Below, in pieces: positions 32,654 to 47,983 of a stretch of 64,000 nt of DNA (position 1 is its first letter; every line of letters begins with the position of its first letter). The translations under genes and the position numbers were made by a program. Origin of the DNA: Candidatus Aminicenantes bacterium (GTDB taxonomy: Bacteria; Acidobacteriota; Aminicenantia; JAMOAD01); the NCBI GenBank assembly GCA_027061995.1, contig JAMOUT010000075.1, positions 92-64,091 on the forward strand. Direction: 5' to 3'. Below the pieces are notes generated by a model, which was given only the letters and a program-made list of their open reading frames with translations, ran no database searches and was not told the origin of the DNA.

Positions 32654-33793
32654 TTATCTTCTCCTCTTCATTTCTTTACCTTTAAGATTAATTTCCGTAG
32701 AAGCAAGGACTTCATGAGTTTCAGCATTCCTGTAAACAACCTTAAATCCTCCGATTCCGGGGCCAAGCTTCATGCCTGTATTTATTGTTACAAATCTCTT
32801 ATTAGTTCTCATCCCTAATCTTCTTTTCGCAATAAATCTTCCCGTTTCTCCCTTTAATACAAGACCTCTTTTTGTAATTTTCCCGATTGTTTTAATAGGC
32901 TCTTCTCCTCTATACAAAACTATTTCTATTTCGGCTCCACCTTTCGCTAATCTTTCTCTGAAAACAGGATTTTCAAATCTTTTAAGTTTATTAATTTCCA
33001 ATCTTAAGCATTGAGGACAATAGGGACCGGGCTGCGGACCATCAGGACCAAAAGGACCCCAAGGACCCCAACCTATAATTATGCGAGCATTTCTGAGTTT
33101 TTCTATAATCCACGGATCAATATGGATACCGTTATCACTGCAGTTATCACTAATTGTAAAAACATCGCCATTGTCATAGACAGCATTATCAACGGTTTTT
33201 ACTCTTACTACATAAGAACCATTGGGAATAGTGTTAGGAATTGTCCATGAGAAAGAACCGTCATTGGCAGTCGGATTTACTATGATAGTTTGCAAAGTAG
33301 TCAAATCAGTCTTATATAGCGTAATCTTAACACTATCATTCATGCTACCGCTCTTTGTCCATCTGATTGTGTGAGAACTTCCTTTCTCTAAACAATCTCC
33401 ACTACGCGGATCGGTTACCGTAATCGTGCCACCCGTCGGAGCAGATGTTGCGATATTGAAAACATCACTATCATCATAAACCTGATTATCAATTGTCTTT
33501 ACCCTGACAATATACTGACCGTTAGGAATGGAATTAGGAATTGTCCATGAGAAGGAACCATCATTAGCGGTCGGCCTAACTATTATCATTTGTAATGTCG
33601 TATGATCGGGTTTATACAGCGTAATTTTAACATTATTGTCCATACTACCGCTCTTTGTCCATCTGATAGTATATGTGCTTCCCTTGTGCCATGTTGAGCC
33701 CGAGTGGGGATTTGTTACTGTTATGCTTTGTGCATAACTCATTGCAGTTATGAAAACCGCAATCAATAAAAACAATAAAACTTTTTTCTTCAT
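32654..33793 (-). CDS. Secreted modular protein, family member 1: signal peptide, 2x Kre9/KNH-like ~90-aa domains, variable Gly/Pro-rich C-terminus
   Basis: The start is set at ATG 33793 after GGAGG. The signal peptide is MKKKVLLFLLIAVFITAMSYAQS. The repeats read ITVTNPHSGSTWHKGSTYTIRWTKSGSMDNNVKITLYKPDHTTLQMIIVRPTANDGSFSWTIPNSIPNGQYIVRVKT. Confidence 0.8.
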   Translation of the reverse strand: MKKKVLLFLLIAVFITAMSYAQSITVTNPHSGSTWHKGSTYTIRWTKSGSMDNNVKITLYKPDHTTLQMIIVRPTANDGSFSWTIPNSIPNGQYIVRVKTIDNQVYDDSDVFNIATSAPTGGTITVTDPRSGDCLEKGSSHTIRWTKSGSMNDSVKITLYKTDLTTLQTIIVNPTANDGSFSWTIPNTIPNGSYVVRVKTVDNAVYDNGDVFTISDNCSDNGIHIDPWIIEKLRNARIIIGWGPWGPFGPDGPQPGPYCPQCLRLEINKLKRFENPVFRERLAKGGAEIEIVLYRGEEPIKTIGKITKRGLVLKGETGRFIAKRRLGMRTNKRFVTINTGMKLGPGIGGFKVVYRNAETHEVLASTEINLKGKEMKRRR

Positions 33794-33828
33794 TTGAAAA
33801 CCTCCTTTAGTTTTTAATAAATAGTATA

Positions 33829-33845
33829 TGCATTTTTTGTGCCAT
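33829..33845 (-). promoter_or_regulatory. Sigma54-like -24/-12 element (minus strand reads TGGCACaaaaaaTGCA)
   Basis: The GG-N10-GC spacing is exact. It lies ~40 bp upstream of the start codon. The homologous element is conserved upstream of all family members. Confidence 0.45.
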
Positions 33846-33918
33846 AGCGCATTATTTAAGAAAACGGTTGATATCATTGCATTTTATTTTGTCCACCACT
33901 ATTCATCAAACAACCGAA

Positions 33919-33958
33919 CGACAGAATTGTCGGCCGGTTAGACAAAAATGTCGGCCGG
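33919..33958. promoter_or_regulatory. Tandem palindromic upstream sites (cGACAgaatTGTCggccgg / GACAaaaaTGTCggccgg), candidate enhancer/UAS
   Basis: A GACA-N4-TGTC dyad recurs upstream of every family member, 70-110 bp from the -24/-12 element. Confidence 0.45.
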
Positions 33959-34045
33959 TTTTAAAATTATTGACAAAAATGTTAATCTTCTCCGGAATTG
34001 TTTTCCCCTTTTGGCTATAATTATATTTGATTTCGCGTATTGATT

Positions 34046-34082
34046 TAAAAAAAAAGCCGCCTTTTCATCTGAAAAGGCGGCT
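34046..34082 (-). terminator. Rho-independent terminator of family member 2 (agccgccttttc-atct-gaaaaggcggct followed by a T-run on the minus strand)
   Basis: A 12-bp GC-rich stem is followed by a run of 9 T on the coding strand. Confidence 0.7.
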
Positions 34083-34103
34083 TATATATCTGATACGGTT
34101 TTT

Positions 34104-35621
34104 TTATTTCAGCATATCATTAATTGCTTTTCCACTTTTACTCATACTATTGTTATTCGGATTACAATCATCATTAGTTTTAAGATTATCAGCTCCTATA
34201 TCAGGGTCATATGTAAGATAAACTTTGAATGTGGGCGGAAACTCCCCTTCATTCGGAGAACTCGAATTCCAATCCATCTCATAGTTTATTGTGATAGTTT
34301 CTCCCGCTTTAAGATTCTGAAAATTTTTCGTTTTTAAGGGATGAGTAGGATCTCCCATATCCATAACTATCATCTGTTGGTTAGGGTGGCTTATGTAATC
34401 CGCATTGCCCACATTCTTAACTACCCCTGTAATTCTGACTTTCCCTCTGAATTGACTATACTTTCTTACTATACTAAATTTTATATCCACTACGGCAAGG
34501 TCAGGACACTTTTTAGTAAGCCTTGCATTTTGTAAAATCTTAGGGTTAATTGTAGTAATAAGTGAATTATTATAAACTCTTCCATGCTCCATACCTTTAA
34601 CTTTTAGTTCCTTTTCACCTATCGGGTTTTTACCGGAAAAAACCACCAATTTGTAACCGCGAGGATTCCTTCCCATCATTTCCTTTTGTTTAGGTGTTAA
34701 TCTTAAATCAAACATGCTCGGCATACTATTAAAAAAGACTCCTCCTCTTTTTACCATAGGTCTGAATACACCAAAATTATAAATGACCTCTCTTCCTTTC
34801 ATCAACTTTATAGTTACCGGCTGTTTAATGTTTGATTTCTCAAGAGCATTTTTAATACCACCGATTCCACGAATTCTGGGACCCGGTCCGTGCATGTAAA
34901 TAGCAAGTTCGGCAAGATTCAGGCTTGCACGAAAACGCCCGAAGTCAATAGAAGGAATTCCACTATCACAATTATTACTAATAGAAAAAATGTCACTATC
35001 ATCATATACGGTATTGTCAACTGTTTTTACTCTTACAACATAAGAACCTTCGGGAATAGAGTTCGGGACTACCCAAGTATAAGCACCATCATTGGCAGTC
35101 GGGTTTACTATGATAGTTTGTAAAGTAGTCAAATCAGTCTTATATAGCGTAATCTTAACACTATCATTCATACTACCGCTCTTTGTCCATGTGATCGTGT
35201 GAGAACTTCCTTTTTTCCAACAATCTCCACTATGCGGATCGGTTACCGTAATCGTGCCACCCGTCGGAGCAGGTGTTGCGATATTAAAAACAACACTATC
35301 ATCATAAACAGCATTGTCCATTGTCTTTACTCGGACAATATACTGGCCATCAGGAATGGAATTGGAAACCACCCACGAGAAAATGCCGTCATTAGCAGTC
35401 GGCCTAACTATTATCATTTGTAATGTCGTATGATCGGGTTTATACAGCGTAATTTTAACATTATTATCCATACTACCGCTCTTTGTCCAAGTGATATTAT
35501 AAGTGTTTCCCTTATACCATGTTGAACCCGAGTGGGGATTTGTAACGGTAATGCTTTGAGCATAACTAAAGGCAATCATAAAAACTGCAATTAAAAAAAT
35601 CATTAAAACTCTTTTCTTCAT
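34104..35621 (-). CDS. Secreted modular protein, family member 2: signal peptide, 2x Kre9/KNH-like domains, C-terminal CARDB-like domain
   Basis: MKKRVLMIFLIAVFMIAFSYAQS is followed by the same tandem domains. The C-terminal CPDLAVVDIKF...ITGVVKNVGNAD resembles CARDB. Confidence 0.8.
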   Translation of the reverse strand: MKKRVLMIFLIAVFMIAFSYAQSITVTNPHSGSTWYKGNTYNITWTKSGSMDNNVKITLYKPDHTTLQMIIVRPTANDGIFSWVVSNSIPDGQYIVRVKTMDNAVYDDSVVFNIATPAPTGGTITVTDPHSGDCWKKGSSHTITWTKSGSMNDSVKITLYKTDLTTLQTIIVNPTANDGAYTWVVPNSIPEGSYVVRVKTVDNTVYDDSDIFSISNNCDSGIPSIDFGRFRASLNLAELAIYMHGPGPRIRGIGGIKNALEKSNIKQPVTIKLMKGREVIYNFGVFRPMVKRGGVFFNSMPSMFDLRLTPKQKEMMGRNPRGYKLVVFSGKNPIGEKELKVKGMEHGRVYNNSLITTINPKILQNARLTKKCPDLAVVDIKFSIVRKYSQFRGKVRITGVVKNVGNADYISHPNQQMIVMDMGDPTHPLKTKNFQNLKAGETITINYEMDWNSSSPNEGEFPPTFKVYLTYDPDIGADNLKTNDDCNPNNNSMSKSGKAINDMLK

Positions 35622-35657
35622 TTGAAAACCTCCTATAGTTCCTTAATAAACAGTATA

Positions 35658-35674
35658 TACATTTTTTGTGCCAT
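35658..35674 (-). promoter_or_regulatory. Sigma54-like -24/-12 element (TGGCACaaaaaaTGTA)
   Basis: Paralogous to 33829-33845, with GT in place of GC at -12. Confidence 0.4.
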
Positions 35675-35750
35675 AGAGCATTATTTTAGAAAACGGTTGA
35701 TATCATTGCTTTTAATTTTGTTCTCCCTTATGCACTAAACGATGAATCGA

Positions 35751-35785
35751 CTAATATGTCGCCTAAACAGACAGAAATGTCAGTC
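35751..35785. promoter_or_regulatory. GACAgaaaTGTC dyad plus half-site, candidate UAS
   Basis: Same position relative to the promoter as in member 1. Confidence 0.4.
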
Positions 35786-35841
35786 AATTTTAAAATTATT
35801 TTCCCCTTTTGGATATGATTATGTTGCTTTAATATTGATTT

Positions 35842-35874
35842 AAAAAAGCCGCCTTTTCGTTGGAAAAGGCGGCT
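35842..35874 (-). terminator. Rho-independent terminator of family member 3 (agccgccttttc-gttg-gaaaaggcggct)
   Basis: The stem is nearly identical to the terminator at 34055-34082, so it was duplicated along with the gene. Confidence 0.7.
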
Positions 35875-35896
35875 CTATCTCTGAGACAGTTTTTAT

Positions 35897-37651
35897 TTAT
35901 TCAATAAAATCAAATACTGTGATATAGGTGCCTTCAACATTATGAGCCTTGATTGCTTTACTTGAAATAACATGGTTTTTATCTTTTATAACAAGCGCAT
36001 ACTTTATTAGCTTTCCGCACGGAGCTCTCTTAACCTTAACAACATATTTGTTGCTATACGGATAATAACAGGTAGAATTCATCATCTTTTTGTTTATGGG
36101 AATCTCTTTCAATCTTTCCCATGTTTTTGTTTTTTCTCTGTAATATTTAATATATGCTTCTTCGGCTCCGACAAAATCATACAGGAATGCAACCGTTCCT
36201 TCATTATGGTAAGTCACTCCTGTTTCAACTTTTTTTGTTTGATCGACGATTTTAAAACTTTTGATATAAGGTTTGCGTTTAACCCAAAGAATTGAATAAG
36301 AATTATTGTCTTTTCCTATTGATTCCATTTCGATTGTTATATCTCTGTATTTATCATGAATTTGAAAGGAACCTATGCTTGAGTCTTTTTTACTATCATA
36401 TGTTACCCAATTCTTTTTAGTTTTAGTATCATATATTTTACCCCTTACAGCATCAACAAAATTATAATAGATTAAAGGTGGAATTTGTCCGCAATTCACC
36501 CAAACAGTTTTATTTTTGGTATCTTTAAAAAAAAGTTTTGATTTTATATTTATATCTCCTCGCTTAACCTTTAAGTTTAACAAAGCCTTATTGTTATCTT
36601 CGTTCGCTTCGTCAATCAATCTGCTTGAATCAACCATAACCTGAAGAGTATAATAACCGGCTTTAGTATATTTAATATTGTTTAACCTGATAACAATTTG
36701 CTCATTCCTTTTTAAACCATATTTCACAAATCCTTTTGATATGCTATTGTCATTATTATAAGCATAGGTTTTAAAAAATTTATCTGCCGGAATATCATTC
36801 CCGATATTCTTTATTGTTACTTTAATGGAAAAAGGTCTGTTTGAATACAAGGTGGAAGGCTCTGTTTCAACTTTTATAATTTTAAGATCAGGTTTGTATT
36901 CCATGAATTTTTGCAATGGCTCCGCGAGAGTATTATTATATGTTTTTAATGTTGCAGTTTCCGGTTGATTATAATTGTCTTTGATAAAATCTGTCAAAGA
37001 ACTTCTTTTAATTGTAAAAACAGCACTATCATCATATACCTTGTTATTCATCGTTTTCACTCGGATAATATACTGTCCATCAGGTATGGAATTAGGAATT
37101 GTCCATGAGAAGGAACCATCATTGACGGTCGGCCTAACTATTATCATTTGTAATGTCGTATGATCGGGTTTATACAGCGTAATTTTAACATTATTGTCCA
37201 TGCTACCGCTCTTTGTCCATCTGATTGTGTGAGAACTTCCTTTCTCTAAACAATCTCCACTATGCGGATCGGTTACCGTAATCGTGCCACCCGTCGGAGC
37301 AGGTGTTGCGATATTAAAAACAACACTATCATCATAAACCTGATTATCAATTGTCTTTACCCTGACAATATACTGACCGTTAGGAATGGAATTAGGAATT
37401 GTCCATGAGAAGGAACCATCATTAGCGGTCGGCCTAACTATTATCATTTGTAATGTCGTATGATCGGGTTTATACAGCGTAATTTTAACATTATTGTCCA
37501 TACTACCGCTCTTTGTCCATCCGATAGTATATGTGCTTCCCTTGTGCCATGTCGAGCCCGAGTGGGGATTTGTAACGGTAATGCTTTGGGCATAACTAAA
37601 GGCAATCATAAAAACTGCAATTAACAATAACATTAATACTTTTCTTTTCAC
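35897..37651 (-). CDS. Secreted modular protein, family member 3: signal peptide, 2x Kre9/KNH-like domains, long variable C-terminus with CARDB-like segment
   Basis: MKRKVLMLLLIAVFMIAFSYAQS is the signal peptide (GTG start). KPDLKIIKVETEPSTLYSNRPFSIKVTIKNIGN is CARDB-like. The protein is 584 aa. Confidence 0.8.
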   Translation of the reverse strand: MKRKVLMLLLIAVFMIAFSYAQSITVTNPHSGSTWHKGSTYTIGWTKSGSMDNNVKITLYKPDHTTLQMIIVRPTANDGSFSWTIPNSIPNGQYIVRVKTIDNQVYDDSVVFNIATPAPTGGTITVTDPHSGDCLEKGSSHTIRWTKSGSMDNNVKITLYKPDHTTLQMIIVRPTVNDGSFSWTIPNSIPDGQYIIRVKTMNNKVYDDSAVFTIKRSSLTDFIKDNYNQPETATLKTYNNTLAEPLQKFMEYKPDLKIIKVETEPSTLYSNRPFSIKVTIKNIGNDIPADKFFKTYAYNNDNSISKGFVKYGLKRNEQIVIRLNNIKYTKAGYYTLQVMVDSSRLIDEANEDNNKALLNLKVKRGDINIKSKLFFKDTKNKTVWVNCGQIPPLIYYNFVDAVRGKIYDTKTKKNWVTYDSKKDSSIGSFQIHDKYRDITIEMESIGKDNNSYSILWVKRKPYIKSFKIVDQTKKVETGVTYHNEGTVAFLYDFVGAEEAYIKYYREKTKTWERLKEIPINKKMMNSTCYYPYSNKYVVKVKRAPCGKLIKYALVIKDKNHVISSKAIKAHNVEGTYITVFDFIE

Positions 37652-37687
37652 TCTTAATTCCTCCTTTAATTTTAATAAAAAAAATAT

Positions 37688-37703
37688 TCAATTTTTATAC
37701 CAA
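37688..37703 (-). promoter_or_regulatory. Sigma54-like element (TGGTATaaaaaTTGA)
   Basis: Conserved position. The region 37652-37710 is identical to 42305-42362. Confidence 0.35.
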
Positions 37704-37775
37704 AACATATTCTTCGGAAAAATATTTAACCGCCTCGTTCTTTATAAAAAAACAAAATACTACCTTAAATAGATT

Positions 37776-37810
37776 GACGACAATATTGTCTTATTAAAAA
37801 CAATTTTGTC
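37776..37810. promoter_or_regulatory. GACgACAATATTGTC palindrome plus ACAATTTTGTC, candidate UAS
   Basis: A perfect 12-bp dyad GACAATATTGTC is present. Confidence 0.45.
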
Positions 37811-38042
37811 TATAATCTATACAAAGGTGTTGGCATTTGTTTTGTTCCTTATGATTTTCCCCTTTTTATTTTATCTTTGATACATCCGTCTCGGTTTTTT
37901 AATATATTAAAAAGAATCATAATAAGAATATTATATTTACCCGTCTCATTCTCTTATGAATTTAATATTTCACAAAGAGTAAATAAAATATGACAAAAAA
38001 TTCTCTGAAACATCATTATTATTTTTATCTTACCCCGCCAGT

Positions 38043-38078
38043 AAAAAAAAAGAGGGCAAACTTCGTTTGCCCTCTTTT
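38043..38078. terminator. Bidirectional rho-independent terminator (aaagagggcaaac-ttcg-tttgccctcttt)
   Basis: A 13-bp stem is flanked by A-run and T-run, downstream of family member 4. Confidence 0.7.
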
Positions 38079-38106
38079 TATATCTTCGTTTTGTTATTAT
38101 TTCCTA

Positions 38107-39423
38107 CTATCTCTCCAGAACCTCTATCTCCATATAAACATTATCATAATAATCAACACACTTGTTATTATTATGAGAAAAGCTCTCATCCACTCCGGTG
38201 AAAATTATTCCGTGATTGAAAGAGGGATTTCTAACCCATTTTCTAACCAAAGACGATAAATTTCCCTGTGGATTTTCAATAAGCTCAATAGAAGCATTAA
38301 ACAGGTTACTAAAAGGTTTTGTGACCCTGTAAATTCTTAAGCCACAATAGTTCCCCTTATAATGATGGTAGTGAAGGGTAGCTTTTGTTATCAAACCTTT
38401 ACCCTTTAGCTTACTTACATCGAAAAAAGCATGGGCACGGTATGCTTCTCCATAATAATTATATGTTATCGAATCTTCTTTATAAGTATTTGCATAACCA
38501 ACCCTTAATTTTCCGTTACCAGGATCATCATATTTAAACCCCAGCACAAAAGGCGCTCCACCAATTATTGATGATTTTTTCTTATTTTTCCAATGATAAG
38601 TGTTCGTTGTTTTCGCATAAATTTTGTATTTATGAGTTTTTATAGAAGCAAAAATATGAAATGGCTTACTATATCCTACAGCACCATCCTTTTTCCTGAC
38701 TATTTTAATCCTATGATCTCCTATATATTTTATAACATTAGCAAACAGTCTCTCAGGAATCTTCCAATCATAAGTCTTAAGTTTTGATTTATCCCCCCAA
38801 CGAGAAAGGCTAATAAAACCTGCTCTAATAACCTTTTCGACCTCTTTTTTATCAAAACTCACAAGATAAATAGCAAATTCTTCTCCAGATTTTCCTTCCC
38901 ACTTAATCGTCATTGTGGAACCTTCCTTCCACTTGCCTCCGGTAGGACTAATAATGTTAATGGTCTTTAATTTGCCGTTTTTACCGGGATTCACCGCATC
39001 AAGAATGGCGCCAATGTTTTTACTATTATCAGGCTTAATTATGCCCGCATATTTTCCAACATTGGATAAAGAGTCAATTTTAAACACTTCTCCATCATCA
39101 TACACAGAATTATCCATTGTCTTAACTCTTACTAAGTATTTACCGCTCGGGATACTATTCGGGATTGTCCATAAAAATGACCCATTGTTGGGAGTAGGTT
39201 TTGCGATAATATAAATAAGAGACTTATGATCAGGTTTATAAAGAGTGATTTTAACCTGTGAATCCATGTTTCCACTCTTACTCCAAACAATCTTATAGGT
39301 ATTGCCTTTAATCCAGGTATTTTGGGAATTAGGCTTTTTGACAGTTATTGTCCCTGAACCTGAATAAGCAAATGCAACAAAAAATAAAATGACCACAACA
39401 AAAATTAAAAGTTTTTTTCTCAT
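38107..39423 (-). CDS. Secreted modular protein, family member 4: signal peptide, 1 divergent Kre9/KNH-like domain, different C-terminal beta-rich region
   Basis: The start is set at ATG 39423 after GAGGAGG. The signal peptide is MRKKLLIFVVVILFFVAFAYSGSG. The domain reads ITVKKPNSQNTWIKGNTYKIVWSKSGNMDSQVKITLYKPDHKSLIYIIAKPTPNNGSFLWTIPNSIPSGKYLVRVKT. Confidence 0.75.
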   Translation of the reverse strand: MRKKLLIFVVVILFFVAFAYSGSGTITVKKPNSQNTWIKGNTYKIVWSKSGNMDSQVKITLYKPDHKSLIYIIAKPTPNNGSFLWTIPNSIPSGKYLVRVKTMDNSVYDDGEVFKIDSLSNVGKYAGIIKPDNSKNIGAILDAVNPGKNGKLKTINIISPTGGKWKEGSTMTIKWEGKSGEEFAIYLVSFDKKEVEKVIRAGFISLSRWGDKSKLKTYDWKIPERLFANVIKYIGDHRIKIVRKKDGAVGYSKPFHIFASIKTHKYKIYAKTTNTYHWKNKKKSSIIGGAPFVLGFKYDDPGNGKLRVGYANTYKEDSITYNYYGEAYRAHAFFDVSKLKGKGLITKATLHYHHYKGNYCGLRIYRVTKPFSNLFNASIELIENPQGNLSSLVRKWVRNPSFNHGIIFTGVDESFSHNNNKCVDYYDNVYMEIEVLER

Positions 39424-39455
39424 TATAACCTCCTCTAAAAAAGTAAAAAAGTTTA

Positions 39456-40858: not shown

Positions 40859-42304
40859 TTAATTAGAGCATTTTTTCTTTCCTGTATTATGAACAGGTGC
40901 TCCCACACCTACAACTTTTATATAAGTTTTAACTAAATTGTTCCCAATAGAACGCTCCGCACAATCACTGTTAATCGGGCAAACTACATAAACAGCAACT
41001 TTTCTTACCCCCGATAAAAACCATCTGTTCTCTACAGTATAGGATCTATGACCTCCCGGAGAGATTTTTGGTAAACTAAAAATTTTGGGAGGGTCCGGAG
41101 GGAGAGTGGGATCATGCACTATATTCTTTATCAAAATCTGTAAATTACATCTACTGCAGGAATTTTGATCTCCGATGTTTTTTACATCAACATTTAATAT
41201 TACTTTTTTACCGGGAGCCACCTCTTTTTTATCATCCACACAAACAATAAGATCAGGAAGACCTTTTGTAAAAATTGTCTTTATAATTTTATTATTATCA
41301 TACCTCTTTTCTCGAACTCCTCTGCTCTCATTAACAGTATAAGTAAAAATGTATCTACCCTTCTTCTTAAAATAAAAATCAGCTTTCCAATTAACACTTC
41401 CACCTCGAGAAATATTAGAAAAGATATGTTTTATCACTTTTGTATAATTTTCAGGTCCATTAACAACAAGTTTTGTTTCAACATTATTCACACCCTTTAA
41501 ACCCATATTCCCCACTTTAACTTTAAACTCAGTTTTATTAACAGTTCCTCCGACAGGTGCAAGAGAGGCCTCCCGAATATAAAGATCGGGTAGAGATATA
41601 ATTTCTGTAGCCGGGTTGTTCCCAATGATAATATTGTCAAGAAGATTATCAATATAAAAAAGTTTGCTCTCTGTTGAAATTCCCCCTCCTATAGTTTTTA
41701 TTTTAATTAAATATTTTCCATTATCCAAAACTGACGGAATCCTCCACATATAAAAATTTTCCCCGAGATTATTTTCACAAGATGAGACAACATCCATAAC
41801 AAAGGATACGCCATGTCCAGCTTGCTTATAAAGCTTAATTTTCACCTGTGAAGACATATCCCCTTCCCTTTTCCATCTTATTTTATAAGTTCTGTTCTTT
41901 CTTAATTTTTCTCCACTTAAAGGGAAAATCATGGTTAGCTTAGGTTGAATAACCGATTCAGAGATTGTAAAATTATCGGAATCATCATAAACCTGATTAT
42001 CAATTGTCTTTACCCTGACAATATACTGACCGTTAGGAATGGAATTAGGAATTGTCCATGAGAAGGAACCATCATTAGCGGTCGGCCTAACTATTATCAT
42101 TTGTAATGTCGTATGATCGGGTTTATACAGCGTAATTTTAACATTATTGTCCATACTACCGCTCTTTGTCCATCCGATAGTATATGTGCTTCCCTTGTGC
42201 CATGTCGAGCCCGAGTGGGGATTTGTAACGGTAATGCTTTGGGCATAACTAAAGGCAATCATAAAAACTGCAATTAACAATAACATTAATACTTTTCTTT
42301 TCAC
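40859..42304 (-). CDS. Secreted modular protein, family member 5: signal peptide, 1 canonical plus 1 divergent Kre9/KNH-like domain, 2 CARDB-like domains, Cys-rich C-terminus
   Basis: The 5' ~350 nt are identical to member 3. LPDLYIREASLAPVGG...KVKVGNMG and LPDLIVCVDDKKEVAPGKKVILNVDVKNIGD are CARDB-like. Confidence 0.8.
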   Translation of the reverse strand: MKRKVLMLLLIAVFMIAFSYAQSITVTNPHSGSTWHKGSTYTIGWTKSGSMDNNVKITLYKPDHTTLQMIIVRPTANDGSFSWTIPNSIPNGQYIVRVKTIDNQVYDDSDNFTISESVIQPKLTMIFPLSGEKLRKNRTYKIRWKREGDMSSQVKIKLYKQAGHGVSFVMDVVSSCENNLGENFYMWRIPSVLDNGKYLIKIKTIGGGISTESKLFYIDNLLDNIIIGNNPATEIISLPDLYIREASLAPVGGTVNKTEFKVKVGNMGLKGVNNVETKLVVNGPENYTKVIKHIFSNISRGGSVNWKADFYFKKKGRYIFTYTVNESRGVREKRYDNNKIIKTIFTKGLPDLIVCVDDKKEVAPGKKVILNVDVKNIGDQNSCSRCNLQILIKNIVHDPTLPPDPPKIFSLPKISPGGHRSYTVENRWFLSGVRKVAVYVVCPINSDCAERSIGNNLVKTYIKVVGVGAPVHNTGKKKCSN

Positions 42305-42339
42305 TCTTAATTCCTCCTTTAATTTTAATAAAAAAAATA

Positions 42340-42355
42340 TTCAATTTTTATGCCA
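42340..42355 (-). promoter_or_regulatory. Sigma54-like element (TGGCATaaaaaTTGA)
   Basis: Identical context to member 3. Confidence 0.4.
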
Positions 42356-42430
42356 AAATGTTTTATTTGTTAAAAATATCATAAAATATTAAATAACATT
42401 AAAAACAATTTTTTTGGTAACAAGTAAAAT

Positions 42431-42448
42431 ACAACAATTTTGTCGATT
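42431..42448. promoter_or_regulatory. ACAACAATTTTGTCG dyad, candidate UAS
   Basis: Same motif class. Confidence 0.35.
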
Positions 42449-42612
42449 CAAATACAATTACAATAAGTGGCCTTCATGTAGAACAATCACGGTTTTCAAC
42501 CAAAATATCTTTTTGTTAAAATTAATATAAGTATTTAGTAATAGAAAAGCGTTCATTGCTAAAATTATAATATAAAATAAAAGATAAAAACATCCCTGAA
42601 TAACAAGTTTAT

Positions 42613-43869
42613 CTATTTCAATTTGAACACATGGATAATGGGTTTATCCTTATCAACATAAGGTTCCGCAATATAAAGATATCCCCTATCTCTATCAAAA
42701 GCAACAGCTCCCAAATGATCTTTTTGCTGATTGGAATTTATATGAAAAAGATATTTATCTATGTTCAAACTTGTGTATGGCTGAGGTTCATAAGGTTTAG
42801 ACCTTCCTTCTATGACCTTTTTAAAATCATCGGGATCATAAAACAGGATAATGCCGTCAAGATAGGTTGACCACCAACCTCTATTATCACATTCAAGACA
42901 GGGTCCATCCTGATTCCCGTACCAGCACTCACCTCTCCCCTTTGTTCCAACAAAAACAACGGCAGCTTTATCTCCCTTGGTCAACCATACGGCTCCCTGC
43001 CATTCATCCGAATTATGATAATTTTTCATCTTGTGTTGAGTTTGATCAAGATCCTCTGTTGAAGTATATTTTAAAAGAGTTTTAAAATTGAGTTTTGTCC
43101 CGTTTGAGGGGGGATTACCCTGTTTCCAGGGGGCGACGGCAAAGAGAGAAGGTCCTTGTCCCGACCACCCTCCGTCTCTGAATCTTCCTGTGGCAAGCTG
43201 ATAACCATCTATATATTCATCAGCCCAATTTTTCGGAATTTCAAACATATAATCATTAGTGCAATATTCATGATGAGGTGTATCAATATACCAATTACCC
43301 GCTTTTTTTGGATTTGATAAATCAAGTTCACACCGGCCGTGAGTTAGATCGGAAGGTTCCTGATAATGTTGTCCGATACAGAAATAGAGTTTTGCCGAAT
43401 TTTGATTTTCCTGCTTGGGAAGATATGTAATGCCCACTCTCGGAATCTCATAATTTGAGATATTAAGGATATCCTTGAATTTCTGTATTGTTTTTGCTCT
43501 CGGTAATTCGGAAAGAACCTTATTTTTTGAAATAACGGGTTTTGGAATACTTATTTCCGATATTCTATATTCCCAAGCATGTCCTGTTCCATAAAGGGAA
43601 CCCGGGTATCCGTCATTTTCTCCGTTTTTATCCCCTTCGGGACAATAAGTAAGAGCAAATCCTCCCCATTCCCAACTGTTAACTATCTCTCCTGTTCCAT
43701 CAGGCAATCTGAATGCTCCCATATACTCCAAATCGGAAGGTTGTATCAGTTGAGTGGGGATAGGGATGTTACTATTATTCGTATCTTCATCATTACCATT
43801 TTCAGTAGCTTTATTGCAATTGAACGCTAATAAAATTAAAAACAAAAATAATATAAAATATTTTTTCAT
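42613..43869 (-). CDS. Secreted hypothetical protein (signal peptide; unrelated to the family) embedded in the array
   Basis: MKKYFILFLFLILLAFNCNK has a signal peptide with a non-canonical lipobox. No Kre9-like domain is present. It starts 13 bp after the upstream terminator. Confidence 0.5.
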   Translation of the reverse strand: MKKYFILFLFLILLAFNCNKATENGNDEDTNNSNIPIPTQLIQPSDLEYMGAFRLPDGTGEIVNSWEWGGFALTYCPEGDKNGENDGYPGSLYGTGHAWEYRISEISIPKPVISKNKVLSELPRAKTIQKFKDILNISNYEIPRVGITYLPKQENQNSAKLYFCIGQHYQEPSDLTHGRCELDLSNPKKAGNWYIDTPHHEYCTNDYMFEIPKNWADEYIDGYQLATGRFRDGGWSGQGPSLFAVAPWKQGNPPSNGTKLNFKTLLKYTSTEDLDQTQHKMKNYHNSDEWQGAVWLTKGDKAAVVFVGTKGRGECWYGNQDGPCLECDNRGWWSTYLDGIILFYDPDDFKKVIEGRSKPYEPQPYTSLNIDKYLFHINSNQQKDHLGAVAFDRDRGYLYIAEPYVDKDKPIIHVFKLK

Positions 43870-43881
43870 TTTAAATAACCC

Positions 43882-43910
43882 AAAGCGGGAGAGTTTTACT
43901 CTCCCGCTTT
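43882..43910 (-). terminator. Rho-independent terminator of family member 6 (aaagcgggagag-tttt-actctcccgcttt)
   Basis: A 12-bp GC-rich stem is followed by U-rich sequence on the minus strand. Confidence 0.6.
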
Positions 43911-43928
43911 ATTTATTATATACAGATA

Positions 43929-45353
43929 TCAGAACAAACGAACGCCTACTCTATAGCGATTATTCTCCTTATCAGATTCGCATCTTGTAATTCTACTTGT
44001 GATGGTTATATACATAGTATAGTGTCCCGCTTTTAATCTGGGATGAACAGAATGTTTTTTGCTCGGGTGACCGAATATTTTATTAAAGCTTATCACTTTT
44101 TCTTCATTACGATCAAACTTGAATGGCCCATAAGTTCCATTGGCACCTTCTATTTCTTGAAAACCACCCTTATAAAGTTCCCATTTTACAAATACATTAT
44201 ACAAAGATGAATAACCGGAACCTCCTGCTTTGGCATGAATTTTAAATTTCACTCGCCAGCGATGGGAAGGTCTTCCGTAAACTTTTTTAATTTTAAAATC
44301 ACTTATTCTGGTAATCATCAAATCTGCATCAGTTACATATATTTTCTTAATTAGTTTATTGTTTCTTTCATCTGTTTCAGTAATTTCGTTCTCAGGATCA
44401 ACTTGTATATAAACGCTTGTTCCGCAAAGATTAACGCCTTCCAAATCCGAGCGATGAACAAGGCATATGTTAAGTTGACTGTTAGCGTTTAATCGGATAT
44501 TATCCTTATTTATATTAAAACGCCTCATAGGCTGATTGTCGGGAATAACTAAAACGCGATACTTAAAAGGTCCATTATAAGCGCTATAATAATTTTTTAT
44601 ATTAGCTCCGATACATCCGTCAAAAGATCTTGAGAAAAAGATATCTTTCACTTCGAAATCGCGCATAATTCTAAGGTTGTGCCCCAGATAATCTCCAAGG
44701 GTACTGCTTGCTATATTAAAAATTTCGCTATCATCATATACGGCATTATCCATTGTCTTTACCCTTACTACATACTGTCCATTAGGTACACTTGAAGGAA
44801 TACTCCATGAATACGAACCATTATTTGCTGTCGGTCTTACTATTATTGTCTCAAGAGTTTCTCCATCAGTATGGTAAAGCGTTATCTTTACCTGACTATC
44901 CATTGCTCCTGTCTTAGTCCATCTTATCGTATAAGAATGACTGTCTCCTTTATACCATGTTTCTCTACTAGGAGAGGTTACATTTATTGATGCTGCGGGC
45001 GCATTGGCGATAGTAAAAACAGCACTTTCTCCGTAAACGGCATTATCCATAGTTTTTACTCTTACTACATACTGACCTGCATGAACGCTTGTCGGAATAC
45101 TCCATGAATACGAACCATTATTTGCTGTTGGTCTTACTATTATTGTCTCAAGAGTTTCTCTGTCAGTATGGTAAAGAGTTATCTTTACCTGACTATCCAT
45201 TGCTCCTGTCTTAGTCCATCTTATCGTATAAGAATGACTGTCTCCTTTATACCATGTTTCTCCCGAATGTGGGGAAGTTACTGTTATTGTCTGTGAAAAA
45301 CATAGTACCCCCATAATCATTACTACAAAAAACAAAAATAATTTTTTCTTCAT
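43929..45353 (-). CDS. Secreted modular protein, family member 6: signal peptide, 2x Kre9/KNH-like domains (divergent subtype), variable C-terminus
   Basis: The signal peptide is MKKKLFLFFVVMIMGVLCFSQT. The repeats read ITVTSPHSGETWYKGDSHSYTIRWTKTGAMDSQVKITLYHTD.ETLETIIVRPTANNGSYSWSIP.SV..GQYVVRVKT. Confidence 0.8.
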   Translation of the reverse strand: MKKKLFLFFVVMIMGVLCFSQTITVTSPHSGETWYKGDSHSYTIRWTKTGAMDSQVKITLYHTDRETLETIIVRPTANNGSYSWSIPTSVHAGQYVVRVKTMDNAVYGESAVFTIANAPAASINVTSPSRETWYKGDSHSYTIRWTKTGAMDSQVKITLYHTDGETLETIIVRPTANNGSYSWSIPSSVPNGQYVVRVKTMDNAVYDDSEIFNIASSTLGDYLGHNLRIMRDFEVKDIFFSRSFDGCIGANIKNYYSAYNGPFKYRVLVIPDNQPMRRFNINKDNIRLNANSQLNICLVHRSDLEGVNLCGTSVYIQVDPENEITETDERNNKLIKKIYVTDADLMITRISDFKIKKVYGRPSHRWRVKFKIHAKAGGSGYSSLYNVFVKWELYKGGFQEIEGANGTYGPFKFDRNEEKVISFNKIFGHPSKKHSVHPRLKAGHYTMYITITSRITRCESDKENNRYRVGVRLF

Positions 45354-45392
45354 GATCTTTTACCTCCTTTATTTGTTAATATAATAACCTTA

Positions 45393-45407
45393 TCAAATTC
45401 TATGCCA
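45393..45407 (-). promoter_or_regulatory. Sigma54-like element (TGGCATagaatTTGA)
   Basis: Conserved motif and spacing. Confidence 0.4.
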
Positions 45408-45480
45408 CAATCTCTTTTGCGATAAAAAAGCTTAATTCTATTCTTTCTTCAGGAAAACAACTTTTTCATTTTTTTATAAT

Positions 45481-45517
45481 TTCGACATTATTGTTATATT
45501 AACAACGAAATTGTTAA
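45481..45517. promoter_or_regulatory. TTCGACATTATTGTT / AACAACGAAATTGTT degenerate dyads, candidate UAS
   Basis: Degenerate version of the GACA-N4-TGTC site. Confidence 0.3.
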
Positions 45518-46288
45518 GCTTTTCAATTAAATTCTTTTATTTCGAAACAGTACTATAAGCTTATAATCAGAGTTATCAATTTTATTCTATATAAATCTGT
45601 TGAAAGAGAAAAAGCGACACCTCATATATATTCACTTATATTAATTATTCCTTTAGTATTAGTTAGCAAAACTTTAACTCCCTTATAGTCGAACAATTTT
45701 AACCGGAGTAATCTTATCTTCCCTTTTTTATCAATCTTAGGGATATTGTTTTCCTGCTTTTTACTCAAAAAAATATTATTCTTTATTATTAGTCGGTAAT
45801 TTAGTTATACAATTAACAAAACGGTCAAATCCTTTTAAATATTCTTTATTATATTAAAGGGTGTTACATATAAATTTTTTAACATGGTTAATTATTGCAG
45901 GCTCACAATGATTTTAAAAAACTGTGATAAAAATACAAATATTTTTGAGCCTACTTAAATATATTTTTTTTAAACATTAAAATTAACTATAATTCAATCT
46001 TAATTGTATTAACTGCGGGAGCAAAACGAATTTTACTTTCCAAAACCCCTGTTTTAGCAATTACAATAAGTTTAGGACATACTCTTTTATGGATACCGAA
46101 AAATAATTTTTATGTGCTTAATTTAATTTCCCCTTTACAAATATTAGCACAATGATTTGATTTGTCTGTTTCCAATCGAATATCTTTTCCCTTTTTATCT
46201 TTACTCTTATTTTTTATTTTTTACCGCATTTTCTTCTCTTTCTCATTCTTTAAACATTATTAAAAACAAACTATTTCACTTCCCCTTA

Positions 46289-47317
46289 TTAATTATCAGA
46301 ACCTGAGTTAAATTTTGTTTTATTTATAATTGTTTTCTTTGTCTTTATCTTTTTTAAAGGAGATACCGATAGCTTTGTAATAGTAAAAACTCCGCTATCA
46401 TCAGAATATTTACCATCCTTTGTTCTTATCCTGATAAAATATTTACCCGAGGGAATAGTTGCGGGAATCTTCCACTTATAATCTTTTGCACTGGTTGGAT
46501 ATCGTCTTGTTATAATAGTTTGCAATTTTTTATTATCCGCTCTGTAAAGAGAAAGCTCAATGTAAGGATCAAGCTTTGACAATGACATTGTAAACCATCC
46601 GATATCATATTTCAGACCTTGATACCATTTAAAGCCTTTTTCAGGGGTTTGTAATTTTAAGGTAGGTGGAATATCAAGTATATAAAAAACATCACTGAAA
46701 GCAGAGACTCTCCCATCCGTGGTTATTACTTTAACAACATACTGTCCTTCAGGTATTGAAGAAGAAATATTCCATCTATAATTACCACTGTTCCGCACTC
46801 TTCTTGCAATTTCGGTTTGTAAAGTTCTTTTATCAGGCTTAAATAAAAATATGTTCACATATCTGTCCATGGAAAACAAACGCATCCAGGCTATGTCAAG
46901 CACATCCAATCCTTTATAAAATTTTTGATTTTTATAAGGAGCTTGAATAGCTATGGCAGGTGCAGGCTCTTTAACAGTAAAGTATCCGCTGTTCCCTGAA
47001 ACAGCAGTATTAGTCCCTACTATTTTTATATAATAGGAGCCCGGTTTTAAATTTGTCGGAACTAACCATTTGTAATTTCCATTATTAAAAACATTATTTC
47101 CTATGTCCAGCACTTTCCCTTGTTTATCACACAAATAGATATTAATATGAGAAATAATGTGTTTTTTAATTGTCATTTTCCATTTTACCGGAACATATGA
47201 TTCCCAAGTCCAAACACTTCCTGATTTGGGAGAAACCACATTAATTCTACCCGCAGAATAGAGCACACTTCCTAACACAAAGAGGACCAACAAACTTACA
47301 AAAATTTTTTTGTTCAT
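46289..47317 (-). CDS. Secreted modular protein, family member 7: signal peptide plus 3 divergent Kre9/KNH-like domains, short basic C-terminus
   Basis: The signal peptide is MNKKIFVSLLVLFVLGSVLYSAG. Three repeats follow the pattern W..G..Y.I.W......YV.I.L....K.LQT.I.RR......Y.W.I....P.G.Y.V.V.T.DG. Confidence 0.7.
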   Translation of the reverse strand: MNKKIFVSLLVLFVLGSVLYSAGRINVVSPKSGSVWTWESYVPVKWKMTIKKHIISHINIYLCDKQGKVLDIGNNVFNNGNYKWLVPTNLKPGSYYIKIVGTNTAVSGNSGYFTVKEPAPAIAIQAPYKNQKFYKGLDVLDIAWMRLFSMDRYVNIFLFKPDKRTLQTEIARRVRNSGNYRWNISSSIPEGQYVVKVITTDGRVSAFSDVFYILDIPPTLKLQTPEKGFKWYQGLKYDIGWFTMSLSKLDPYIELSLYRADNKKLQTIITRRYPTSAKDYKWKIPATIPSGKYFIRIRTKDGKYSDDSGVFTITKLSVSPLKKIKTKKTIINKTKFNSGSDN

Positions 47318-47340
47318 TTTAACCTCCTAATAAAAAGCTA

Positions 47341-47356
47341 TCAAATACCATGCCAA
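47341..47356 (-). promoter_or_regulatory. Sigma54-like element (TGGCATggtatTTGA)
   Basis: Conserved motif ~25 bp upstream of the start codon. Confidence 0.4.
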
Positions 47357-47444
47357 AAAAAGATACCTCTCCATAAATAAATTTATTGTTTTTACTATTA
47401 CTTTCTTTCAGGGCAATCTTTACCTCAAGTATCTATCGCCATTT

Positions 47445-47475
47445 ATGTCGATATGCATACATTTTTGTCAATTTT
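47445..47475. promoter_or_regulatory. ATGTCGATAT / CATTTTTGTCAA partial dyads, candidate UAS
   Basis: Weaker version of the site. Confidence 0.25.
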
Positions 47476-47689
47476 AAAAGTTCAATTACTTCTTAACTGA
47501 TTTTCAAAATATTCTTAATTTCCTGTCCACACTTTAAGAAAATGCGTCTTTTGGATTATATAAATTTAAAAAAAGAAAATTAATCTATGGCTTGCTGCTA
47601 CTACCATTAAGTTTTTTATTTTTAAAATATTGGATTTATTGCTTTCTCTTGCACTATTATAAAGGTAAACTTTCATTTAAATTCATACA

Positions 47690-47880
47690 TCTTTCAGTGA
47701 ATGGAACCATGGAGTTCTCTTACAAAATGAATCTTTCCAGACCCCGGAAGGAGTAAGTATATCATGGTGAGTCATTCCTTTTGTCCGTATATAGAATCTT
47801 AATTTTGCAGCATCGGATATTTTTGTTCCTATATTTCTAATTCCCACAAAAATATTACTTCTAAAAAAGGTTCCTATACT
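47690..47880 (-). pseudogene. Decayed remnant of a further family member (CARDB-like fragment ...VGIRNIGTKISDAAKLRFYI...) retaining its own promoter/UAS
   Basis: The minus-strand translation gives a CARDB-like NIGxxxxxAxxxxxxFY segment before stop codons. The conserved promoter motif lies at 47901-47916 and a perfect palindrome at 47984-47999, with no intact ORF. Confidence 0.4.
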
Positions 47881-47900
47881 TTCTTAAATTAAATTTGTTT

Positions 47901-47916
47901 TCAAAATATCATGCCA
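47901..47916 (-). promoter_or_regulatory. Orphan sigma54-like element (TGGCATgatatTTTG) upstream of the remnant
   Basis: Same motif as the other members, with no intact downstream gene. Confidence 0.35.
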
Positions 47917-47983
47917 TAATAATTCTGTATCATAAAAAGTTATTAATATTTACTAATAGAGCAATGAACCATCATCATGTAAC

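Follow-up and report, generated by a model that had tools for sequence, protein, structure and literature searches.

The locus is a row of seven intact paralogous genes (A to G) spanning 32654-47317 on the minus strand of the window, the 64-kb stretch of DNA analysed here. Two decayed copies and one unrelated gene, X, accompany the family, and no additional family copies were found in the rest of the 64-kb window. The genes and the neighbouring locus are:

7152-32430, minus strand: Wzx/Wzy-type exopolysaccharide (EPS) locus, adjoining the array on the same strand
32654-33796, minus strand: gene A, 380 aa; signal peptide, two Kre9_KNH domains, A/B-class C-terminal module (PG-rich Cys linker, ~100-aa domain, basic tail KRRR)
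34104-35621, minus strand: gene B, 505 aa; signal peptide, two Kre9_KNH domains, A/B-class alpha/beta module, CARDB-like beta-sandwich
35897-37651, minus strand: gene C, 584 aa, GTG start; signal peptide, two Kre9_KNH domains, CARDB, then a 225-aa C-terminal region without domain assignment
38107-39426, minus strand: gene D, 439 aa; signal peptide, one clear and one degenerate Kre9_KNH domain, DNRLRE-like C-terminal domain
~39871-40411, minus strand: pseudogene psi1, a fragment with signal-peptide and Kre9 sequence joined to an E-class CARDB C-terminus, located by tblastn
40859-42304, minus strand: gene E, 481 aa, GTG start; signal peptide, two to three Kre9_KNH domains, two CARDB
42613-43869, minus strand: gene X, 418 aa, lipoprotein (lipobox LAFNC) with a five-bladed beta-propeller, interrupting the family row
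43929-45353, minus strand: gene F, 474 aa; signal peptide, two Kre9_KNH domains, F-class C-terminus with a weak CARDB signal
46289-47317, minus strand: gene G, 342 aa; signal peptide, three Kre9_KNH domains, short basic tail
~47629-47874, minus strand: pseudogene psi2, an E-class CARDB C-terminal fragment with in-frame stops

The sequence-only reading had counted eight like units. Seven are indeed intact paralogues; the eighth intact ORF is gene X, an unrelated lipoprotein that lacks a Kre9 domain and is not a family member, although it is conserved as the immediate downstream neighbour of the F-class gene. A single decayed copy had been claimed where two are present, both E-class remnants. 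Psi1 carries several stops and frameshifts and has a degraded promoter remnant, TGGCATAAAGATTA, just 5′ of it; psi2 was found by tblastn with P0034 and L003 922-2295 as queries (E 2e-15). A start of gene A at 33877 was rejected, as the extension is translated promoter, and the true start is 33796. The join of N-module to C-terminus in gene C is borne out by an independent assembly, L002. Near-identical N-terminal sequence and the same three-domain layout make L007 4362-5387 the likely orthologue of gene G.

The long non-coding spacers that had been remarked on are real: the median intergenic gap is 308 bp within the array, whereas it is 10 bp in the rest of the window. They exist mostly because each gene has a predicted sigma-54 promoter and putative activator sites in front of it. 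Every unit has the same order: one or more GACA-N4-TGTC palindromes, a sigma-54-type -24/-12 element, a GGAGG Shine-Dalgarno sequence and the ORF. A strong intrinsic terminator follows five of the seven genes (A, B, C, D and F). The elements are:

32603-32634, minus strand: intrinsic terminator after A
33830-33844, minus strand: sigma-54-type -24/-12 element of A, TGGCACAAAAAATGC
33920-33983, minus strand: putative activator (bEBP) sites of A, three GACA-N4-TGTC palindromes
34054-34083, minus strand: intrinsic terminator after B
35659-35673, minus strand: -24/-12 element of B
35749-35781, minus strand: putative bEBP sites of B
~35842-35873, minus strand: intrinsic terminator after C
37688-37702, minus strand: -24/-12 element of C
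37779-37810, minus strand: putative bEBP sites of C
38047-38079, minus strand: intrinsic terminator after D
39456-39470, minus strand: -24/-12 element of D
39536-39567, minus strand: putative bEBP sites of D
42341-42355, minus strand: -24/-12 element of E
42433-42444, minus strand: putative bEBP site of E
43881-43911, minus strand: intrinsic terminator after F
45393-45407, minus strand: -24/-12 element of F
45484-45495, minus strand: putative bEBP site of F
47341-47355, minus strand: -24/-12 element of G
47438-47469, minus strand: putative bEBP sites of G

The -24/-12 pattern, TGGCAY-N5-WTGM, stands in front of all seven genes and ends 23-39 nt before the start codon. The strict pattern has one other match in the 64 kb, which is intragenic. 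Across 158 kb (the window plus related loci), 36 of 50 matches lie just upstream of family genes, a zone that makes up 3% of the sequence and in which about 1.5 matches would be expected. The GG, TGGCA and TTG core of these 36 sites was set by the search pattern, so their invariance is not independent evidence; what speaks independently for sigma-54 elements is that the matches are enriched at this location and sit at a fixed distance. Several elements in a related array, L006, are canonical (TGGCACGGAATTTGCA). Counting against the assignment, over the 36 sites the -12 dinucleotide GA is far commoner than the canonical GC (A 22, C 8, T 6).

The palindromes number one to three per gene, lie 77-139 nt upstream of the -24 element and usually form pairs 20-21 bp apart. 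Exact GACA-N4-TGTC occurs five times in the window against 0.21 expected. With one mismatch allowed, 42 of 82 matches fall in the -130 to -60 zones, where 1.5 would be expected from their 1.8% share of the sequence. Because the genes are paralogues, some of the likeness between their upstream regions could reflect inheritance and not selection; against that, the -24/-12 and palindrome motifs are kept across genomes and where flanking sequence has diverged. The palindrome, -24/-12 and GGAGG layout recurs in four related arrays (among them L003 with at least 12 genes, L006 with 10 and L007 with 11), mostly from MAGs labelled Aminicenantes, some of these labels being inconsistent. Members without the -24/-12 motif look operonic, as they lie within ~130 bp, and mostly within 50 bp, of the previous gene.

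From this arrangement we strongly infer that each member is a single-gene unit under its own sigma-54 switch. With a sigma-54 element and palindromes at every gene, the members would be silent by default. No rpoN or GAFTGA-type activator gene was found in the window, the related loci or the 10 kb to the right, and a single enhancer-binding protein, encoded elsewhere, would switch all members on together via RpoN, which is assumed to be present in the genome. The per-gene promoter with its activator sites, absent from the sequence-only reading, is the most informative feature of the locus.

The common part of the proteins is N-terminal. Each has a Sec/signal-peptidase-I type leader followed by one to three Ig-like domains of the Kre9_KNH type (Pfam PF10342), which scores above the gathering threshold in all seven proteins (E 3e-13 to 1e-25, two to three stretches each). 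The Pfam search thus agreed with the Kre9_KNH and CARDB assignments made from raw sequence. The signal peptides, described as almost identical throughout, are so only in A, B, C and E; the first module of D, F and G is ~60% or less identical. The module had also been taken for an export/anchor module, a role that the analysis did not support. It is a generic extracellular Ig-like "stalk" repeat, common to thousands of giant proteins: its profile matches 16,432 cluster representatives, many of them proteins of 1,000-6,900 aa with 10-57 tandem copies. No PEP-CTERM, LPXTG, T9SS CTD or lipobox signal and no SLH-type domain was found in the family proteins, and beyond the Sec leader they have no recognisable outer-membrane or secretion signal.

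Over their first ~214 aa, A, B and C show 81-86% identity. Between about -35 and about +315 (~350 nt), genes C and E do not differ at all (100% identity), after which identity drops to ~50%. The E N-module is 52% identical to its L007 orthologue versus 91-97% to paralogues in its own genome. These identities show that gene conversion homogenises A, B, C and E across the promoter-proximal region and the first N-module, leaving few differences there. The N-module evolves in concert, and the C-terminus is not the diversifying part.

Gene conversion in a tandem array with a common 5′ module and different 3′ modules is also what one would look for in the kind of family that the sequence-only reading had in mind: variable surface adhesins or S-layer-type proteins with an export/anchor module joined to diversified distal domains. 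Cassette recombination would then yield antigenic or phase variation. The pseudogene fragments could serve as donor cassettes, and CARDB is named for cell-adhesion-related proteins. However, conversion here homogenises N-modules and does not shuffle C-termini. Nor do the C-termini differ completely, as had been stated: A and B have in common an unmatched alpha/beta module, and four proteins have CARDB-type sandwiches, C and E with CARDB itself and B and F with a CARDB-like form. Across genomes the C-termini fall into ~20 conserved classes with counterparts 40-71% identical (E 71% to L007 15358-16791, B 60-62%, C 55% to P0003); by this measure the classes clearly persist across species and are not the highly variable distal domains of such adhesins. 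Three independent assemblies are colinear where they overlap, at 99.96-99.99% identity. The array also lacks a single expression site, since each member comes with a complete promoter, Shine-Dalgarno sequence and start codon of its own and, in most cases, a terminator. No invertible-promoter architecture, convincing inverted repeats around promoters or recombinase gene was found, and no anchoring motif or SLH-type domain. We regard a variable adhesin family as improbable.

The conserved N-termini, divergent C-termini, tandem order and decayed fragments also give the array a superficial likeness to polymorphic toxins or effectors, in which a conserved N-terminal trafficking region carries alternative toxic C-terminal domains. 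The C-termini that can be assigned are of beta-sandwich binding type (CARDB, DNRLRE-like) rather than nucleases, deaminases or peptidases. The spacers hold promoters, terminators and pseudogene remnants, with no small immunity-type ORFs after the genes, and no T5SS, T6SS, T7SS or Rhs/PT-type trafficking domains were found. This evidence largely refutes a toxin array, which we consider extremely unlikely.

The surface-glycan locus noted next to the array is a genuine Wzx/Wzy-type polysaccharide locus. It encodes RmlA, APS kinase, Wzz, epimerases, GT2/GT4 glycosyltransferases, a priming sugar transferase, Wzy polymerase, Asn synthase, a methyltransferase, a sulfotransferase, a flippase and sulfatase-like proteins, and its polysaccharide is probably sulfated. 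Array and EPS locus are adjacent in two genomes, this one and L006.

The EPS locus might be only a neighbour if the proteins were secreted or surface glycan- or polymer-binding foraging proteins, akin to the accessory binding proteins of polysaccharide-utilisation systems, with the sigma-54 promoters switched by nutrient status. Sigma-54 is a classic controller of nutrient-responsive genes. Kre9_KNH modules occur elsewhere with T9SS tails, PKD and FN3 domains and fused to secreted hydrolases (C1A and C10 proteases, a chitobiase-type domain, a metallophosphatase). Gene D carries a DNRLRE-like domain, a sub-threshold match (NCBIfam NF033679, 28.1 bits versus a cut-off of 34), and domains of this type are common in carbohydrate-active proteins. 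The fold neighbours of the embedded gene X propeller include GH43, GH32 and GH62 enzymes; gene X has no glycoside-hydrolase sequence signature, however, and neither the array nor its flanks contain a catalytic domain, a transporter or a TonB-dependent receptor. Together with the adjacency to the EPS locus kept in L006, this makes a nutrient-acquisition role unlikely, in our judgement.

On balance, the array probably encodes secreted binding proteins of beta-sandwich type that are co-regulated as a sigma-54 regulon and tied to the adjacent EPS locus. It would be a lineage-specific multigene family of secreted all-beta proteins in an uncultured bacterium, probably a member of the Aminicenantes, laid out as tandem, independent sigma-54-dependent transcription units. 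In the weakest step of this model, the exported products may act with the adjacent EPS as binding or scaffolding components, as cell-envelope or matrix proteins. The common N-modules could be spacers or domains for a common partner, and the C-termini are predicted to supply different binding specificities.

As the earlier reading held, no characterised bacterial system matches: homologues are all labelled hypothetical, and the PF10342 literature found is entirely fungal, so function cannot be transferred to the array proteins. The founders of PF10342, fungal Kre9/Knh1 and Ser-Thr-rich GPI-anchored (SGP1-type) proteins, have the same Pfam domain and are likewise secreted or cell-wall-associated. 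They come from eukaryotes, mostly have one domain, and carry O-glycosylation in Ser/Thr-rich regions as well as a GPI anchor, whereas the array proteins have one to three tandem copies and bacterial C-terminal modules, with no Ser/Thr-rich tract or hydrophobic C-terminal anchor. The giant bacterial Ig-like surface proteins have the same module, and some of them open, like the array proteins, with a signal peptide followed by the module; a T9SS sorting tail at the end, or PKD or FN3 domains, are present in some. In the array, by contrast, many small proteins (342-584 aa) carry one to three repeats apiece; each has its own transcription unit, predicted to be under sigma-54 control, and a distinct C-terminal module.

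A functional analogy for an EPS with cognate scaffold proteins is found in Vibrio cholerae, where the rbm matrix-protein genes lie between the vps EPS clusters, are co-regulated with the EPS genes and encode secreted beta-sandwich or lectin-type matrix proteins. The rbm genes are not known to have any sequence relationship to the array, to form a tandem paralogue array or to be regulated by a classical sigma-54 promoter before each gene.

The organisation of the array appears analogous to that of the PEP-CTERM families, without the PEP-CTERM tail. Those families have single-gene operons with upstream regions of more than 200 nt, an activator site and a sigma-54 motif, EPS loci, sigma-54 regulation through PrsK/PrsR/PrsT, and a sorting module that is more alike within species (Haft et al. 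2006, PMC1569441). Like the PEP-CTERM/exosortase (EpsH) system, the array consists of lineage-expanded secreted paralogues in presumably diderm environmental bacteria, in mostly single-gene operons with non-coding upstream regions of more than 200 nt. An activator motif ~60-100 nt before the sigma-54 -24/-12 element, which itself lies a few tens of nt ahead of the start codon, a tie to EPS biosynthesis loci, a common module closer within than between genomes, and few other recognisable domains complete the likeness. Unlike in PEP-CTERM proteins, the common module is N-terminal (signal peptide plus Kre9_KNH) instead of a ~24-aa C-terminal PEP-TM-basic sorting tail; such a tail is absent from all 113 family members. 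The window ORFs scanned yielded no exosortase, and the GAFTGA motif of a PrsR-type activator was absent from all window ORFs of at least 80 aa. The activator motif is a GACA-N4-TGTC palindrome rather than the TTTACA-containing motif of Proteobacteria, and the genes form one tight tandem array. The layout thus resembles a known sugar-coat-associated protein system but stands outside it, and what is new here is the per-gene sigma-54 layout, the gene conversion of the N-module, the stable C-terminal classes and the recognition of the module as a common repeat.

In the best-supported picture, genes A-G would form a regulon of secreted multi-beta-sandwich proteins, gated by sigma-54 and an enhancer-binding protein (bEBP). 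The array itself is a real feature and not an artefact. The sequence-only reading had counted eight consecutive units, seven paralogues and one decayed copy. Seven intact paralogues stand, an eighth intact open reading frame (X) has no kin among A-G, and two decayed copies, psi1 and psi2, are present. No further family copies occur in the window outside the array.

Genes and decayed copies of the array (window coordinates)
32654-33796, minus strand, gene A, intact paralogue
34104-35621, minus strand, gene B, intact paralogue
35897-37651, minus strand, gene C, intact paralogue
38107-39426, minus strand, gene D, intact paralogue
~39871-40411, psi1, E-class remnant with stops and frameshifts
40859-42304, minus strand, gene E, intact paralogue
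42613-43869, X, intact open reading frame for a lipoprotein
43929-45353, minus strand, gene F, intact paralogue
46289-47317, minus strand, gene G, intact paralogue
~47629-47874, psi2, E-class remnant with stops and frameshifts

Sigma-54 promoters carry GG at -24 and GC at -12, 10 nt apart (TGGCAC-N5-TTGCW), shortly upstream of the gene. An element of the form TGGCA(C/T)-N5-(T/A)TG(C/A/T), with GG-N10-G spacing, precedes all seven window genes; 23-39 nt, including a GGAGG Shine-Dalgarno sequence, separate it from the start codon. A strict pattern, with C or A at -12, matches six of the seven (the element of B, ending ATGT, needs T allowed at -12) and has a single match elsewhere in the 64 kb, which is intragenic. 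Over 158 kb of the window and related loci, the element has 50 matches. The stretches directly upstream of family genes amount to 3% of this sequence; chance would place about 1.5 matches there, and 36 were found. For most family genes of other genomes, the start of the element lies a near-constant 48-53 nt from the start codon, and several sites in L006, a related locus, have the textbook consensus (for example TGGCACGGAATTTGCA). The -12 dinucleotide is GA at 22 of the 36 sites, the canonical GC at 8 and GT at 6. The spacing and the GG, TGGCA and TTG core occur in 36/36 sites because the search pattern fixed them, so their invariance is not independent evidence. Independent support for a sigma-54-type promoter comes instead from the strong positional enrichment and the fixed distance to the start codon. 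Family members without the element lie within ~130 bp of the preceding gene, mostly less than 50 bp, and are presumably co-transcribed with it. Searches of the window, of the related loci and of the 10 kb that follow the window on its right found neither an rpoN gene nor a GAFTGA-type activator gene.

GACA-N4-TGTC palindromes precede the -24 element by 75-139 nt, and they often form pairs with a spacing of 20-21 bp, or two helical turns. The window has five exact copies, where 0.21 would be expected. Allowing one mismatch gives 82 matches; 42 of these lie in the -130..-60 zones, which cover 1.8% of the sequence (~1.5 expected, ~28-fold enrichment). As putative bEBP upstream activator sequences (UAS), the palindromes lie within the ~70-150 nt upstream that is typical of the sigma-54 promoter class. 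Five of the seven genes (A, B, C, D and F) have a strong intrinsic terminator at the 3' end. The order of parts in every member is thus UAS, sigma-54-type promoter, Shine-Dalgarno sequence and open reading frame, closed by the terminator in those five. This layout and the two pseudogenes explain most of the length of the spacers, which the sequence-only reading had remarked on and which is borne out by a median intergenic gap of 308 bp in the array versus 10 bp elsewhere in the window.

The promoter region can also be mistaken for coding sequence. A 27-aa N-terminal extension on the open reading frame of A (33797-33877) is promoter read as protein, MISTVFLNNALWHKKCIYYLLKTKGGF, and this pseudo-peptide recurs with stops upstream of B (~35641-35706) and E (~42317-42379). 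The "conservation" of MISTVFLNNALWHKKCIYYLLKTKGGF is an artefact of translating a conserved sigma-54 promoter region, and gene callers may over-extend open reading frames of the family in this way.

A further box, AAAAGGGGAAAA, was considered as a conserved site. Exact copies precede the activator sites in A, B and C only, and arrays in other genomes do not have the box; limited as it is to these recent duplicates, it was not treated as conserved, and its sharing probably reflects their common ancestry.

Exact matches to the AAAAGGGGAAAA box
34001-34012, minus strand, upstream of A
35799-35810, minus strand, upstream of B
37855-37866, minus strand, upstream of C

An orphan perfect palindrome, GACAATATTGTC (47986-47997), with the same sequence as the activator site of C, is found ~630 nt upstream of the G promoter, between psi2 and the PsiE gene, and may be left over from a unit since lost. 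The spacer at 45520-46288 (~770 bp, from G to the F regulatory region) holds no open reading frame, Rfam match or family remnant. No RNA family reached Rfam gathering thresholds in the window, a 935-bp spacer was also empty at E <= 0.1, and searches for rRNA and tRNA in the window (~31% G+C) were negative. In L009, a related locus from an Aminicenantes MAG, a perfect sigma-54 consensus, TGGCATGATATTTGCA (6317-6331), lies ~375 nt upstream of an open reading frame whose secreted product is not of the family; the repeat upstream of this site is of another type, CGAATTTCG. This site suggests a lineage that may use sigma-54 with several activators and further regulons.

Profile searches upheld the Kre9-like and CARDB calls of the sequence-only reading. 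All seven proteins score well above the PF10342 (Kre9_KNH) gathering score of 24.6 bits, at 50.7-90.7 bits in 2-3 stretches each, and C and E exceed the PF07705 (CARDB) gathering score of 22.7 bits, with F sub-threshold. The N-module, of Kre9_KNH type, is a very common extracellular repeat: in an exhaustive profile search it matched 16,432 cluster representatives, 1,795 of them at E <= 1e-30. Many of the matches are giant proteins with 10-57 copies, and some have T9SS tails, PKD, FN3 or enzyme domains. The array gives bacterial Kre9_KNH-type modules, common as they are (~16,000 cluster representatives) and uncharacterised, their first genomic context.

The C-terminus of D is weakly DNRLRE-like (28 bits versus a cut-off of 34), and the last 225 aa of C were assigned to no family by Pfam or PDB sequence search. 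The C-termini as a whole, together with X, gave nothing beyond CARDB and the weak DNRLRE match in Pfam and NCBIfam (E <= 0.1) or in single-sequence and profile searches of the PDB. Polymorphic toxins are essentially excluded as an explanation of the array, as the C-termini are of beta-sandwich type or lack assignment and no conserved small open reading frames lie downstream. Sorting signals were also sought. A PEP, TM-like or LPXTG tail occurs in 0/113 family members, NCBIfam gave no match to the PEP-CTERM tail, and no PEP-CTERM, LPXTG, T9SS-CTD or lipobox signals were found in family members. The T9SS sorting-domain models (TIGR04183 / PF18962) gave sub-threshold matches of 14-22 bits against a cut-off of 23; T9SS cargo was rejected because these lie inside Kre9 domains (residues ~56-104 or 153-202), not at the C-terminus.

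The two ends of the proteins have different histories. DNA alignment of C and E gives 100% identity from about -35 to about +315, a tract of ~350 nt, and ~50% thereafter, while A/C and A/B have other block patterns of identity. Such mosaic blocks indicate gene conversion. The C-terminus of E is 71% identical to its orthologue in the related locus L007, yet its first N-module is 52% identical to that orthologue and 91-97% identical to the in-genome paralogues A and C. Over the N-terminal ~214 aa, A, B and C are 81-86% identical, with D, F and G more distant. Read from these alignments, the family evolves in concert and does so within its 5' module, a clear example of concerted evolution restricted to that part of a gene family. 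Gene conversion keeps the shared N-modules uniform.

The C-termini had been described as highly variable, and this description did not survive comparison across genomes. The 88 family proteins sort into ~20 C-terminal classes. None of the classes in the window is unique to it, and identities to counterparts in other genomes are 60-62% for B, 55% for C, 71% for E, 40% for F, ~40% for A and ~36% for D. The proposal of a variable surface adhesin is only partly supported; it keeps its Kre9_KNH and CARDB domains and loses its hypervariable C-termini. Antigenic or phase variation, for example through invertible promoters, is weakly supported: the inverted repeats present are imperfect, AT-rich, 73-88% complementary and without consistent placement around promoters, and no site-specific recombinase open reading frame was found. 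The C-termini of the regulon would instead supply a fixed repertoire of putative binding functions. Nutrient capture by such binding proteins is a plausible alternative role.

The family extends well beyond this contig. Proteins identical to those of the window occur on a MAG contig and in two other assemblies (L001 and L002), which are colinear with the window at 99.96-99.99% identity. Both end exactly at repeated N-modules, with breakpoints inside the array at window 37643 (end of L002) and 45233 (end of L001). Since short-read assemblies break at near-identical N-modules, the family is likely under-assembled, and so probably under-represented, in MAGs. A scan of species-representative genomes found it on long contigs labelled Candidatus Aminicenantes, and on contigs labelled Dojkabacteria, Persephonella and Clostridia (L004, L005, L006), which are short apart from one of 20 kb. 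These share both the family and the regulatory motifs with the window, and may be mis-binned, with Aminicenantes as the probable source. All long related contigs have the family in a tandem array, of at least 12 genes in L003, 10 in L006 and 11 in L007; L004 has 4 family genes within 6.5 kb.

The flanks of the array offer a possible context for its function. On the same strand upstream (~7-32 kb) lies a Wzx/Wzy-type polysaccharide locus that also encodes an APS kinase, a sulfotransferase and sulfatase/phosphodiesterase-like proteins, so that the polysaccharide is probably sulfated.

Sulfation-related genes of the exopolysaccharide (EPS) locus (window coordinates)
8034-8768, sulfation-related gene
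27475-28350, sulfation-related gene
29862-31355, sulfation-related gene

The L006 array likewise ends beside a sulfatase-like gene and an 82%-identical epimerase. The opposite flank of the window array is housekeeping (PsiE, BipA, M1 peptidase, Rnf complex). The A-G proteins probably work with the neighbouring exopolysaccharide, where they would have an envelope or matrix role.

X is a conserved companion of the array. Its orthologue in L003 is 74% identical and again directly follows an F-class gene. More than 2,281 relatives form a family without annotation; the best 120 are ~50-80% identical, and the named nearest are from Aminicenantes or Acidobacteriota. X is modelled with high confidence (pLDDT 91.9) as a five-bladed beta-propeller, and Foldseek with this model returned generic propellers only. 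We take Pfam Glu_cyclase_2 to be the relevant family for plant-type glutaminyl cyclase (QC). By sequence X does not belong to it, having no Pfam or NCBIfam match at E <= 0.1, and a profile of its family finds no QC among PDB sequences. The catalytic residues of one such enzyme, CpQC, are E69, N155 and K225, and a Q-rule and lipoprotein plant-type cyclases are described in Bacteroidetes (PMC5837995). By a crude, pattern-based predictor of cleavage sites, 62 of 79 family members have Gln at +1 after the predicted cut (...YS/A, then Q[ST]ITVT), among them A, B, C, E, F and most relatives (for example window 33728-33796). The trait recalls the Bacteroidetes Q-rule and is here family-specific; an organism-wide rule was rejected, as ~5 other signal-peptide proteins of the window lack Gln at +1. 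The coincidence of propeller fold and Gln at +1 is suggestive, a low-probability lead. It is tempting to speculate, as a long shot, that signal peptide, Gln at +1 and Kre9-like module together make up a hitherto unrecognised targeting or attachment device that puts changeable C-terminal binding modules on the cell's own sulfated exopolysaccharide, with X as a dedicated maturation enzyme, such as a divergent glutaminyl cyclase making pyroglutamate. If true, this would be a family-specific Q-rule outside Bacteroidetes.

Aminicenantes are abundant and uncultured, and their cell envelope and gene regulation are almost wholly uncharted. What the array provides is a concrete, testable regulon: each genome would have at least 7-12 secreted proteins under common control, through a sigma-54-type promoter and a palindromic activator site of 12 bp. 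The main additions to the sequence-only reading are this sigma-54 architecture, an organisation like that of PEP-CTERM systems and the evidence that the family evolves in concert.

Unlike fungal Kre9/Knh1 or SGP1-type cell-wall proteins, which combine an O-glycosylated Ser/Thr-rich region with a GPI-anchor signal, the A-G proteins have no Ser/Thr-rich tract and no hydrophobic C-terminal tail (0/113), and their context is bacterial. The closest described system is the PEP-CTERM/EpsH families, whose genes mostly form operons of their own behind a long upstream region with an activator site and a sigma-54 motif; the families are associated with EPS loci, and their shared module is alike within species (Haft et al., PMC1569441). 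The array has in common with them its single-gene units, an activator site and a sigma-54-type motif in a long upstream region, an EPS locus beside it and a shared module that varies little within species. It differs in having no C-terminal PEP motif-TM helix-basic cluster (TIGR02595), and no exosortase (EpsH/Xrt), which such systems usually encode in the EPS locus, was found among the glycan-locus and left-flank open reading frames scanned (1014-2123, 4948-32430); one GT4 has a sub-threshold match to the XrtA-associated glycosyltransferase model (186 bits versus a cut-off of 409). PEP-CTERM membership thus fails on both defining features, and by analogy the array would work like that system without belonging to it. 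The design principle of PEP-CTERM proteins, in which EPS-locus-associated paralogues are each a tightly gated sigma-54 single-gene operon, would here extend to an unrelated protein family, probably in a different phylum. This suggests that the architecture is convergent and functionally meaningful.
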